Sequence record: OR924452
Direction: 5' to 3' (one strand)
Source of the DNA: Escherichia phage 241
Length of the DNA stretch: 64,000 bases
Both the position numbers and the translations under genes were made by a program. Below the pieces are notes generated by a model that saw only the letters and a list, made by a program, of their open reading frames with translations, had not been told where the DNA came from and ran no database searches. Below are positions 17,453 to 23,047 of this stretch, in pieces (the stretch's first letter is position 1; each line of letters opens with the position of its first letter).

Positions 17453-18184
17453 ATGTCATATCTACACAGAATTTTTGGTATTGAATTCAGTTCCAACAGC
17501 GTTCGTTATGACCGCACTCACAAAGACTCCGGCGGCAAGACTGGTTACGAACTTGGATCTCGTTTGGGGTATACTGAAGAGCGCCGCCTGAGCGAAAATT
17601 CTCTTCTCACAGCTATGGGTATTGAATTTGAATCCGAGGCTGCTTTAGATCTGGGGGATGAGGTTCGTTTTGGTAAGCCTGAAGTCTTAGAATTTGTTGA
17701 AGACTTCGTGACAGGTTATACCCATGCCGCTAACAATCGTCGCGCCGCCAATGATGCTGTTGGTAAATTTCATTTTGCTGTGAAATACCTTGCCGACAAG
17801 CGTATTCAAATGGAAGCCGAATTCAGTGAAGAAAACTTGAAAGCAGTTTTCGGAGAGACTGGCGATTTCCTGTTGACAGAAGAATCCGGCACTTCTTCCG
17901 CTCGTCATTTCTTTAGTCAACCGTTTATCGTGAAGGGATGTAAAATTCTGATTGATGAAGAACATGTTTTTGGTATTCATCCGGATGTTGTATACGATGA
18001 AGAGACGTGTCTGATCATTTCCAGATTGTTTAACAGCCTGGCGTACACTTCATATTCATTGATCGAACGCTGTATGGAAGAAGAGCATCGCCAAGTTGTT
18101 GTCAACAAAATTCGCTTACATGTTGAGCAGAATTTTAATGGATTCCATTGCGCGTCTGGTGAGATTCCAAACTTCTACATGTAA
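17453..18184 (+). CDS. hypothetical protein (243 aa)
   Basis: ORF with GAGG RBS. Confidence 0.45.
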   Translation: MSYLHRIFGIEFSSNSVRYDRTHKDSGGKTGYELGSRLGYTEERRLSENSLLTAMGIEFESEAALDLGDEVRFGKPEVLEFVEDFVTGYTHAANNRRAANDAVGKFHFAVKYLADKRIQMEAEFSEENLKAVFGETGDFLLTEESGTSSARHFFSQPFIVKGCKILIDEEHVFGIHPDVVYDEETCLIISRLFNSLAYTSYSLIERCMEEEHRQVVVNKIRLHVEQNFNGFHCASGEIPNFYM

Positions 18185-19622: not shown

Positions 19623-19694
19623 TTTAACTCAGAAGCATTCAATAGATGAAGGGGCTGCTATAATAGCAGCTCCTTTTGTTTATTGGAGCACACC

Positions 19695-20357
19695 ATGTCG
19701 TATTCGCTCAAAGGGTTGTTGAAGCGCCCCGTACATCTGTTTGTAAAACCACCTGCTGTCGAAGGGGAATATCCGGCACGAGGAGAGTTGTATTACGTTA
19801 AAGGCTCCAACGGTAGCGGCAAGTCCACTGTCCCTTCCTATCTGGCGGAGAATGATCCTCAGGCGTATGTCGTGACCTACAATGGCAAGATCATGCTCAC
19901 AGTTTGCCCTTCCTATAACATTATCTGTATTGGTAAATATGACAAGTCTAAGTCTAAAGGTGTTGATTCCCTGAAAGATACCGAGCAGATGTTGTTCGCC
20001 TTGTCCATTGCTGATCAGCCGGAATATCTGAAATATGACGTGTTGTTTGAAGGAATCATCCCTTCAACTTTGCTCAGCTCATGGATTCCCCGCCTGACGC
20101 GCCCACCGCGCGAATTAGTCGTGCTCTTCATGGACACCCCGCTTGAAACCTGTGTTTCCCGTGTGAAATCACGCAACGGCGGCGCAGACTTCAATGAAAG
20201 CCTGGTTGTCGAAAAGTGGGAGAGAGTTCATGACCACCGCCAACGGCATAAAGGCTTGTTCCCTACCGTTCCCGCAGGTATGATGAAGTCCAATGGCCTG
20301 ACTATAGAGCAGGCTGTTTTTGCGTTTCTCAATCGCGATTTTGGGAGTATTGATTGA
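19695..20357 (+). CDS. P-loop kinase-fold protein (candidate nucleotide or DNA-base kinase)
   Basis: Walker A GSNGSGKST; about 220 aa; TTGGAG RBS; directly upstream of the pyrimidine hydroxymethylase. Confidence 0.55.
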   Translation: MSYSLKGLLKRPVHLFVKPPAVEGEYPARGELYYVKGSNGSGKSTVPSYLAENDPQAYVVTYNGKIMLTVCPSYNIICIGKYDKSKSKGVDSLKDTEQMLFALSIADQPEYLKYDVLFEGIIPSTLLSSWIPRLTRPPRELVVLFMDTPLETCVSRVKSRNGGADFNESLVVEKWERVHDHRQRHKGLFPTVPAGMMKSNGLTIEQAVFAFLNRDFGSID

Positions 20358-21397
20358 TGGAAATTTTTGCTTTAAACAATAATGATATGCTGAAGAAGGC
20401 TGTGTTGGCCATCCGTGAACACGGCATTGAGTCAGATCCTGGCAACGCAGAGATTAACACGGACGGCACTCGTTTCATTGATGGTGTAACAATTACAGTA
20501 TCAGATCCACGTGATCGTTGGCTTTCCGTTGAAGGCCGTAACTCGTCGGCAATTGCTGCCATCGGTGAGACATTCTGGGTGTTGTCCGGACGTAATGATA
20601 TCCGTTTCCTTTCGAAAGTCTTACCCCGCGCCGCCAACTTCTCTGATGACGGTGTAACCTGGCGAGGCGCGTATGGCCCACGTCTGTACAATAATGGCCA
20701 GTTGGATAGTGTCATCAGCCGTCTGCGTAATAATCCCAACACCCGTCAGGCGTATCTCACCATCTATGATCCGGCGCTGGACTCAGATGAAGGTTTGGCC
20801 GCCCATAGTGAAACTGGAGAAGCCAAGACCAAGGACATGATCTGTAATCTTGCTCTATTGTTCAGTATAACAGAAGGGCGATTGAATATCACTGTCATTA
20901 ACCGCAGCCAAGATGTCTTGTGGGGTATGAGTTCAATCAATTTCATTGAATTCTCTATCCTGCAAGAAGTTCTGGCGAAAGTGCTGAATGTCGAAGTTGG
21001 GTATTACAAACTGTTTTCTAACAATCTTCATTATTACAACAATGAAGTTAGTCGGAAACAACTCGGGGGTATCACTAAGAAGACCAAAACTTCTTCTGGG
21101 ATGTATAATTCTTTGCTGGAATTCTCTTCAGAAAAAGTGAAGTCGCAAAAAGATATTTGTAATCTATTCCTCGGCGTGTTACATCACTGTGACATCGGCA
21201 GTGATTTTGGTAAAATCAGAGAACATCTGAAAGGATATCAAGCAGACACGGGATTGATGATGGATATGTCATATTGCCTGTGGTGTCGACTCAATGATAC
21301 CAAAATTGACAAACGCCGTATCGCTGATGACGGTCTTCGTACTGCATTACTGCATTCCTCTGTTGATCAGAAATTTATGTGGGGGTATGGCGAATGA
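20354..21397 (+). CDS. deoxypyrimidine-nucleotide hydroxymethylase (thymidylate-synthase superfamily, gp42-like) with C-terminal extension
   Basis: RQAYLTIYDP and DMICNLALLFSI...VINRSQDVLWG parallel T4 gp42 RRGIMIYTRP and DFMCTNTVQYLI...VNMRSNDVVFG, including the catalytic Cys; 347 aa vs 246 aa in T4. Confidence 0.7.
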   Translation: MMEIFALNNNDMLKKAVLAIREHGIESDPGNAEINTDGTRFIDGVTITVSDPRDRWLSVEGRNSSAIAAIGETFWVLSGRNDIRFLSKVLPRAANFSDDGVTWRGAYGPRLYNNGQLDSVISRLRNNPNTRQAYLTIYDPALDSDEGLAAHSETGEAKTKDMICNLALLFSITEGRLNITVINRSQDVLWGMSSINFIEFSILQEVLAKVLNVEVGYYKLFSNNLHYYNNEVSRKQLGGITKKTKTSSGMYNSLLEFSSEKVKSQKDICNLFLGVLHHCDIGSDFGKIREHLKGYQADTGLMMDMSYCLWCRLNDTKIDKRRIADDGLRTALLHSSVDQKFMWGYGE

Positions 21398-21963
21398 TGT
21401 ACCAGAACCTTGAATTCTTCACGGGGCGCAAGCGCTCCGGCAAGGACTTCTGTTTGGAGTCCCTGATCAGTTTTCATCATATTCAGGGTGATAAGGATAT
21501 TCGTCGTCTGTCTTTCTCAGATGAACTGCGACGTGTCGCCAATTTCATCTATCCATGGCTACCAGCGGAGGTGGAGGATGCTGTGAAGGACGTTCCATTC
21601 GTACACCCTGATAACCCCAAGGGCTTAACCCCACGGCAGATCTGGCTTCATCTGGGCAGCGATACGGGCTTGCGTTATGTACAACCAGACCTGTTCCTGT
21701 CATTCTTTAAACGATATCAACTTCCTTTGGTGGAGCAGAACCCACACGTTCATTATATCGTGAGTGATTTGCGTACCCCTCAGGAATATGAATGGGCGCT
21801 GAGCACTAAATGTCCCATCACCCGCATTTCAAAGGCGGATCGCGGTGGTATCATAGAGGATGACATTGAGGCTTTCATTGATAAGATGGAAGTTGATTAT
21901 GAATTTGTCAATCCGTTTGAAGGTTGGCAACCGTTCGTCAAATTTTATAGGGATCGGAAATGA
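21394..21963 (+). CDS. 1: deoxynucleoside monophosphate kinase (T4 gp1-like)
   Basis: P-loop FFTGRKRSGKDF matches T4 gp1 LSGVKRSGKDT; ATGA overlap with the hydroxymethylase. Confidence 0.7.
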   Translation: MMYQNLEFFTGRKRSGKDFCLESLISFHHIQGDKDIRRLSFSDELRRVANFIYPWLPAEVEDAVKDVPFVHPDNPKGLTPRQIWLHLGSDTGLRYVQPDLFLSFFKRYQLPLVEQNPHVHYIVSDLRTPQEYEWALSTKCPITRISKADRGGIIEDDIEAFIDKMEVDYEFVNPFEGWQPFVKFYRDRK

Positions 21964-22517
21964 TCACAGCAGAGCATATTAAAAGTCTGCTCGAACTTCA
22001 AAAGGCCACCAACGTGGCCTATTTTGGGGAAGAGTGGAAGAATGTATGGAGTCAGAACGCCGTCGTCAACTCCATATATCGTGAGTGGGCAGAGTTTCTT
22101 GACGAAACGACCGCCGACTGGAAGGTCTATGGTAACGATATCGGCTTCGACCGCACGAAGGCGGTCTATGAACTGGTGGACGTGGTTCACTTCATGCTGT
22201 GTTTCATCCTCGTCGATCGCACCAAAGGAGAGATCGAGGAAGAATTAGAGGAAATGTCTAAGGATAGTTATGCCATGTCTATCGTTAACGGCATAGTTGC
22301 CCACGGCGGGGTGACCTACCGCTTTGGACAGTTCATGGGCGATCCTTGCGTTCGTTCCCTGATGTATTTCCTGAGCGCGTCTTGCTCTTACGTGGGGCTG
22401 GGCGCCGAAACTTACATGCTGGCACACAAACGCAAAAATGATCGCAATCGGCTGCGTGCTGCTGGCGGTGCGAACTACGATAAGTCCGCAGAAACCCCTC
22501 TGACCCTGGAGTTCTAA
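21960..22517 (+). CDS. 56: dimeric dUTPase/dCTPase-family NTP pyrophosphatase (T4 gp56-like)
   Basis: ELVDVVHFMLCFIL aligns with T4 gp56 ELVDIFHFVLNMFV; N-terminal EW...W...E motifs; substrate cannot be assigned from sequence. Confidence 0.6.
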   Translation: MITAEHIKSLLELQKATNVAYFGEEWKNVWSQNAVVNSIYREWAEFLDETTADWKVYGNDIGFDRTKAVYELVDVVHFMLCFILVDRTKGEIEEELEEMSKDSYAMSIVNGIVAHGGVTYRFGQFMGDPCVRSLMYFLSASCSYVGLGAETYMLAHKRKNDRNRLRAAGGANYDKSAETPLTLEF

Positions 22518-23047
22518 TGTTTACAGTTGTCGTATCATATTATGCGGAACATGCCCCGCGCATGGCAGAGAACTTCGCTGAGTTTATTAAACCAGGCGGT
22601 CATGTCGTTATTGCGACCAATTTCAAGAAAGAGCCAGATGGTGCGGCTACTGTAACACAACATATTACAACCAAAGAGCCGGAAACACTTTTTAAACGCA
22701 TTGAAGATTTTGCTTTTGGCGGGGAAGAAATTCCAGAGTCATTACAGCATATCTATTTTGAAGATGCGATATATTATGTTCATGCTATACCAAAAGATGT
22801 TACAACCGAACAACTAATGTATGTTTTGAATATTGCGTTAAATTTGTCATGTGTCAACAGGGCACAGCATAATCGTTTGCGCAATATGTATTTAACAGAA
22901 CGCGGGGGTTCCGGAATCAGTGATGAAAAACTCCCGTCGGTAATGGCAATTCAAGAAGCAATTAACATATTGTCCAAGAAAGTCTTGGGCACCGATTTAT
23001 TAATCACGATCAACAAGCAAGAGGAAACGAAATGGCCGATTCATTGA
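22517..23047 (+). CDS. hypothetical protein (176 aa)
   Basis: ORF between the gp56-like gene and uvsX. Confidence 0.45.
   Translation: MFTVVVSYYAEHAPRMAENFAEFIKPGGHVVIATNFKKEPDGAATVTQHITTKEPETLFKRIEDFAFGGEEIPESLQHIYFEDAIYYVHAIPKDVTTEQLMYVLNIALNLSCVNRAQHNRLRNMYLTERGGSGISDEKLPSVMAIQEAINILSKKVLGTDLLITINKQEETKWPIH

Follow-up and report, generated by a model that had tools for sequence, protein, structure and literature searches.

The predicted dUMP hydroxymethylase of Escherichia phage 241 carries, beyond its TS-like catalytic core, a tail that probably corresponds to the helical domain found at the C-terminus of long-form (MilA-like) pyrimidine hydroxymethylases, an accessory domain with a structural role as its most likely function. 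A further result was unexpected and is new here: this tail is a divergent cassette that is exchanged at its borders, yet it is under purifying selection within each type. The analysis itself provides the fold prediction, the match to MilA, the distribution, the unconserved Cys/His residues, the selection pattern and the mosaicism, and the proposed structural role draws on truncation data for MilA. All positions refer to the window, a stretch of 64,000 nucleotides from sequence record OR924452.

The hydroxymethylase gene, its neighbours and its catalytic core

The open reading frame extends from a TTG at 20354, with the probable start at the ATG at 20357, to a TGA at 21395-21397, giving 346 residues when counted from the ATG. 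The part singled out by the initial annotation (21092-21397) corresponds to residues 246-346 plus the stop codon, and the Cys/His strings quoted there (... GVLHHCDIGSDFGKIREHLKGYQADTGLMMDMSYCLWCRLNDTK ...) are present in the translation. The Pfam match to PF00303 was confined to residues 66-233 (54.4 bits, gathering cutoff 24.3). The phrog_3676 profile covered residues 1-345, and the tail alone aligned with profile positions 248-346 at E = 5e-31. The gene was 100% identical in Salmonella phages PS5 and Mutine and 99.3% identical in Vi01, identities that point to a Kuttervirus genome (ViI-like Ackermannviridae) for the window. ViI-type phages derive their hypermodified thymidines from 5-hmdU, and the enzyme that supplies it is a dUMP hydroxymethylase of the TS family (PMC8989533). 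The ViI-type enzyme is the entry enzyme of a thymidine hypermodification that shields these phages from restriction.

The gene lies within a packed run with overlapping stops and starts, encoding in order a 5-hmdU DNA kinase, the hydroxymethylase, a dNMP kinase, a MazG-like/dUTPase_2 protein and an ACT-like protein. Its ATG overlaps the TGA of the upstream kinase gene by one base, and TGATG or ATGA overlaps join all five consecutive nucleotide-metabolism genes (20355-20359, 21394-21397, 21960-21963 and 22515-22519), an arrangement that suggests translational coupling. The adjoining 5-hmdU DNA kinase matched PF18748 with 387 bits (E = 1.7e-116). This gene (19683-20357, + strand) also matches phrog_800, 'terminase small subunit', and is labelled as such in the Maynard and Marshall records; on a 5-hmdU DNA kinase gene the label looks like a propagated misannotation.

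Table 1. Features of the hydroxymethylase gene (window coordinates)
Feature	Position	Strand	Basis and remarks
dUMP hydroxymethylase gene (TS superfamily, long form)	20357..21397	+	346 aa + stop; ORF, PF00303, phrog_3676
Catalytic TS-fold core, residues 1-232	20357..21052	+	Invariant columns; MilA/ThyA alignments end at 231-237; strand 213-227
Helix 230-237, first of five C-terminal helices (predicted)	21044..21067	+	AlphaFold2; Q235 kept in 68/83 homologues
Linker, residues 238-263 (predicted)	21068..21145	+	AlphaFold2; pLDDT ~87-91 in full-length model, 54-60 in isolated-domain model
Four helices, 264-279, 284-292, 299-312 and 325-333 (predicted)	21146..21355	+	AlphaFold2, pLDDT 90-98
C-terminal tail with S334-x-x-D337-x-K339	21356..21394	+	Domain's most conserved motif; S334 in 64/83 homologues
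Recombining hypervariable cassette (~codons 232-346)	21050..21394	+	Sliding identity, border alignments, 22-genome identity dip
ATGA overlap of hydroxymethylase stop and dNMP kinase start (dNMP kinase gene 21394-21963)	21394..21397	+	Sequence; same layout annotated in five related phages

Across 83 homologues C163 (20843-20845), R61, R130, R183, S184, D186, H225 and Y227 were invariant and aligned with the motifs of MilA and ThyA, H225/Y227 (21029-21037) being the last invariant catalytic residues of the core. The ribose-specificity positions of MilA, K133 and A176 (roles from PMC5175136), correspond to R130 and S184 in the sequence alignment, the residues also seen in enzymes acting on deoxy substrates. 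N195 was nearly invariant and lies one residue off the aligned base-recognising Asp of MilA, a placement that would fit uracil rather than cytosine; R130, S184 and N195 are features consistent with a predicted dUMP enzyme. An orthologue of MilA in substrate (CMP, a ribonucleotide) was rejected on account of R130/S184 in place of Lys133/Ala176, and a short dCMP hydroxymethylase of the T4 gp42 type was rejected on account of the 346-residue chain with its helical domain and Asn195 instead of Asp.

Predicted fold and relatives of the C-terminal domain

A full-length AlphaFold2 model built with the 83-sequence alignment formed a single compact unit (pLDDT 94.6, pTM 0.94). After the strand at 213-227 it contained helices at 230-237, 264-279, 284-292, 299-312 and 325-333, such that the 119 residues following Y227 comprise five predicted helices, and the tail helices were modelled at pLDDT 87-98 overall. 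When the last 111 residues were modelled alone the four-helix part was kept (pLDDT 90-96) and the linker at 238-263 became uncertain; this fall in confidence suggests that the linker is ordered only against the core. Residues ~233-346 are thereby predicted to be a discrete folded helical domain added to the TS-like core. The best-conserved positions of the tail were Q235, F271, L300, D324 and S334, together with a clade-specific S-x-x-D-x-K near the C-terminus.

The extension of about 100 residues past the catalytic core that the initial annotation described is therefore real, with PF00303 ending at 233, H225/Y227 as the last catalytic element and about 110 residues after it, and structure prediction resolved it into a linker and helices. 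Its proposed start near residue 246 did not hold: the tail begins at about residue 233-238, and 246 is the length of gp42. Constructs for biochemistry should not be truncated at residue ~246.

The predicted TS fold matched 396 PDB chains at E of 0.001 or better (Foldseek), and among the 50 matches listed all were thymidylate synthases, MilA or, in one case, a designed protein on a TS scaffold. The top-ranking chain was MilA (5JNH), aligned over 350 columns at TMq 0.75 and TMt 0.81; thymidylate synthases of 264 aa gave a TM of ~0.55 over ~266 columns. Superposition of the core only could reach at most ~0.68 under either normalisation. [quoted passage not shown]

MilA, the CMP 5-hydroxymethylase of Streptomyces rimofaciens (PDB 5JNH, 5B6D; PMC5175136), was also the best PDB sequence match (E = 1e-17; 1e-47 with a profile). 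Like the phage enzyme it has a TS-fold core followed by ~107-119 residues in five helices, and no ThyA-type C-terminal tail. Its extra domain (alpha9-alpha13) is far larger than the C-terminal segment of ThyA, is located at a distance from the active site and is missing from T4 gp42, and MilA truncated at residue 235 or 249 is insoluble (PMC5175136). Unlike the phage enzyme, MilA belongs to a bacterial antibiotic pathway and not to phage DNA modification. The two C-terminal domains are without direct sequence similarity, PDB sequence alignments with MilA and with thymidylate synthases stop at residues 229-237, and the isolated C-terminal domain, used as a structure query, did not recover MilA. 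For an actinobacterial-type homologue (P0050) the alignment with MilA runs up to MilA residue 281 and includes the domain's first long helix. Comparison by hhalign of the C-terminal profile of this clade with that of the remaining homologues gave 87 colinear columns (P = 0.003; reversed controls P = 0.2-0.36), and phrog_3676 aligned through the C-termini of homologues only 37-38% identical overall. The tail and the extra domain of MilA are thus probably one and the same architectural element, their homology being probable and unproven.

E. coli ThyA and T4 gp42 differ at this end of the chain. By chain lengths and His/Tyr numbering, the stretch after the HxY motif measures 28 residues in gp42 and 55 in ThyA, compared with 107 in MilA. 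The ThyA segment occupies the same chain position, after the H207/Y209 strand, where its 27 extra C-terminal residues form two short strands, a 3-10 helix and the folate-closing tail; the phage enzyme has ~110 residues of linker and helices in its place. T4 gp42 (dCMP hydroxymethylase, PDB 1B5E; PMC6400193) shares the superfamily and the hydroxymethylation chemistry and is also without the ThyA C-terminal tail, but its 246 residues end shortly (~28 residues) past His216/Tyr218 with no helical domain, and it has Asp179 for cytosine. The listing of the 60 best PDB sequence matches did not include it, and the core, initially described as gp42-like, is closer to MilA, the top PDB match.

A dUMP hydroxymethylase of the Bacillus phages SP-10 and SBSphiC (phrog_5131) has the same predicted reaction and the same long-form architecture, and it is reported to be structurally very close to MilA (EVADES preprint). 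Its core is 31% identical to that of the phage 241 enzyme over residues 15-259, and the phrog_5131 profile likewise includes a C-terminal region of 130 or more residues. This region is a different sequence family: the phage 241 enzyme matches phrog_5131 over residues 1-236 only, and the SBSphiC enzyme matches phrog_3676 over residues 16-247 only.

The same core-plus-tail architecture recurs widely. Over the whole identity range from 99% to 42%, protein homologues have chains of 342-371 aa, nearly all of ~200 homologues have a tail of similar length, and in 32/32 homologues measured 112-152 residues follow the HxY motif. With MilA, the SP-10/SBSphiC-type enzyme and these ~200 homologues sharing the layout, the suggestion of a domain specific to this pathway is not borne out. 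Helical C-terminal domains have been seen in this enzyme class before, and grouping the tail with the MilA-type domain guards against over-interpreting it as a new module that binds metal or is specific to the pathway. Homologues of 490-590 aa have a third domain after the helical one. In P0048 (549 aa) and P0082 (534 aa) this third domain contains an AYGDSWKRRGE motif and gives weak PHROG matches (phrog_22490, phrog_1485), with no Pfam match and no clear similarity to the MazG-like protein of the window.

Nor does the domain appear to exist as a separate gene elsewhere, as had been envisaged. An exhaustive search of 1.84 billion representative proteins with a profile HMM of the C-terminal domain yielded two full-length hydroxymethylases, one 69-aa fragment and nothing else. 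In the phage collection tblastn matched 268 records; those listed were Ackermannviridae-size genomes of ~120-166 kb and one partial 122-kb record, with one match each, located inside a TS-like gene wherever the record was annotated. Neither search found the domain as a separate gene or in another protein, and short 'stand-alone' matches were rejected as fragments or as pieces of one gene annotated in parts. The hydroxymethylase gene of Enterobacter phage EspM4VN (LC373201, 2306-3016) is split in its annotation into three ORFs labelled 'part of thymidylate synthase', which are probably the product of frameshift errors; this split annotation explains a 53-aa 'stand-alone' match in BFVD.

We favour a model in which a linker packed against the TS-fold core would lead into a small helical bundle, the helical domain replacing the two short strands and folate-closing tail of ThyA and having no counterpart in gp42. 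The domain would complete and stabilise the fold away from the active site, contributing neither chemistry nor a metal. Such a structural role is suggested by the MilA truncations, a requirement for a stable fold having been demonstrated for MilA only and extended here by analogy. Because only the hydrophobic pattern and a few positions would be constrained, the domain would diverge much faster than the core, and divergent versions could pass as a cassette between Ackermannviridae lineages by homologous recombination in the flanking sequences, which are conserved (the final part of the core and the beginning of the next gene).

Exchange of the C-terminal region among Ackermannviridae

Alignment of homologues showed that the tail is conserved in length but highly divergent in sequence, mean identity among Ackermannviridae-type enzymes being 42% in the tail and 78% in the core. 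The divergent region has sharp borders. The 5' breakpoint of the cassette falls at 21034-21052, directly after the stretch encoding the invariant NLHYYNNEV, and the 3' breakpoint is the stop/ATGA overlap. In a 22-genome alignment mean pairwise identity was 0.60-0.64 at 21040-21350, compared with ~0.8 on either side.

The clearest comparison is between the Taipeiviruses K5lambda5 and 0507-KN2-1. Nucleotide differences amounted to 2.8% in the upstream kinase gene, 2.4% in hydroxymethylase codons 1-232, 47.1% from codon 233 to the end (core versus tail, Fisher p = 3e-72) and 1.4% in the dNMP kinase gene. The core dS of this pair is 0.10 and the tail dS 1.7, so that the difference is explained by exchange with a distant lineage and not by faster local evolution. 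Sliding identity between the window and Marshall, both Kuttervirus, gave the same core/tail pattern. DNA identity in this pair was 95-100% in the flanking genes, ~78% in the core (20357-21052) and ~55% in the tail; between these two Kutterviruses the whole hydroxymethylase gene, and not the tail alone, is a mosaic unit.

Cassette types cross genus and host borders, with one type shared by the window and K5lambda5 and another by Marshall and LIMEstone1. Divergence between types is ancient, with dS saturated. Within types dN/dS was 0.08-0.13 in the tail and 0.02-0.03 in the core, indicating purifying selection on the tail among members of one type; together with the confidently predicted helices (pLDDT 87-98), these values contradict a low-complexity, unconserved tail. 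The notion of a fused domain is upheld, as the region is discrete and folded in the AlphaFold2 model, is absent from T4 gp42 and has borders that act as those of a recombination module. We found no description of this recombining-cassette behaviour in the literature. A divergent cassette swapped between near-identical genomes provides natural chimeras, with which the function of this class of domain can be tested.

Other parts of the neighbourhood are also variable. A gene at 17453-18184 (+ strand; 243 aa, phrog_4253 of unassigned function, no Pfam match) is hypervariable, with a mean pairwise nucleotide identity of 0.56-0.60 and flanks at ~0.8 across 22 Ackermannviridae genomes. A sharply bounded hypervariable patch (22200-22360, identity ~0.58) lies in the middle of the MazG-like/dUTPase_2 gene (21960-22517); its 11 types in the 22 genomes show no covariation with the C-terminal type of the hydroxymethylase. 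The ACT-like gene (22517-23047, + strand; PF24021) is moderately variable throughout (identity 0.63-0.70), and its type follows those of the genes upstream of it, the 5-hmdU DNA kinase among them (r ~0.9).

Alternative readings of the domain

One alternative is that the tail is a docking surface for partners in 5-hmdUTP supply or in the replisome, such as the dNMP kinase, the MazG-like pyrophosphatase, the 5-hmdU DNA kinase or the polymerase. T4 gp42 belongs to a multi-enzyme dNTP-synthesising complex, as the title of a work cited in PMC6400193 also states, and the analogy is in keeping with docking, as are the tightly packed run of genes with overlapping stop and start codons, the position of the helical domain between the hydroxymethylase core and another module in the 490-590 aa homologues, and the swapping of the domain at its own borders, which suggests functional separability. 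However, across 22 genomes the C-terminal type tracked the type of its own core (r = 0.81) and was only weakly related to the dNMP kinase, the MazG-like patch, the ACT-like gene and the kinase (r = 0.24-0.52), with values of 0.24-0.47 for nearby variable blocks and 0.52 at most for any other gene. No co-evolving partner was found within 9 kb around the gene in these genomes. Moreover, the net charge of the tail varies among homologues from +2 to -11, a spread that speaks against a conserved electrostatic role. We consider docking unlikely.

A broader proposal is that the domain is the part of the enzyme 'seen' by other proteins, either host immune sensors (e.g. NLR-like Avs) or a phage partner enzyme, and that Ackermannviridae keep and exchange at least eight ancient, divergent cassette types to alter this recognition with catalysis untouched; we regard this as quite unlikely. 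Its narrower form, in which the tail is an exposed surface recognised by host immune sensors and the cassettes are kept and exchanged for escape, seems slightly less likely again. The low identity of the domain relative to the core, its cassette-like replacement between otherwise 98-100% identical genomes and the occurrence of the same types in several genera and hosts are all compatible with escape. [quoted passage not shown] Table S2), and the EVADES preprint lists the enzyme as a putative type I Avs trigger. The link is weak, because this escaper bears two or more further mutations and its siblings have theirs in the terminase or a sigma factor instead, and the C-terminal part of the SBSphiC enzyme belongs to the separate family phrog_5131. 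Purifying selection within types (dN/dS ~0.1) with no gene-wide sign of positive selection, between-type divergence that is ancient and not recent, and equal variability in other blocks of the neighbourhood, which shows that the pattern is not domain-specific, also stand against immune evasion.

The Cys/His residues noticed initially are present, but they do not form a conserved motif. The 109 residues of the tail contain 4 Cys and 4 His, and two of the Cys are spaced i/i+3 along a single helix. Were H276, H277, C278, C307 and C310 to constitute a zinc or other metal site, the tail would be a small metal-binding module. Among 26 close relatives, however, C278 was kept in 13, C307 in 14, C310 in 21, H276 in seven and H277 in five, the replacements being I/V/L/A or E/L/R, as expected for a buried helix and not for ligands. 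In the 83-sequence set the commonest residues in the three Cys columns (C278, C307 and C310) were L, V and A, and no Cys/His column was conserved beyond close relatives. Metal-binding families were also absent from the Pfam and PDB sequence matches. These residues appear to be buried helix positions, and since they are unconserved and replaced by hydrophobic residues a metal site is highly improbable.

Finally, an artefactual extension, arising from an earlier true stop obscured by sequencing error or from a frameshift fusing a downstream ORF, has a negligible probability: at least 80% of the gene is covered in 132 phage records, among which 37 reach 99% identity or more, an ORF of unchanged length recurs in these 132 or more records and in homologues as distant as 42% identity, the gene borders are the same in five independently annotated genomes, purifying selection and the confident fold prediction concur, conservation of the full-length ORF in hundreds of phage records makes the stop codon real, and the sole genome with a split gene is EspM4VN, in which the pieces are labelled as parts of a thymidylate synthase.
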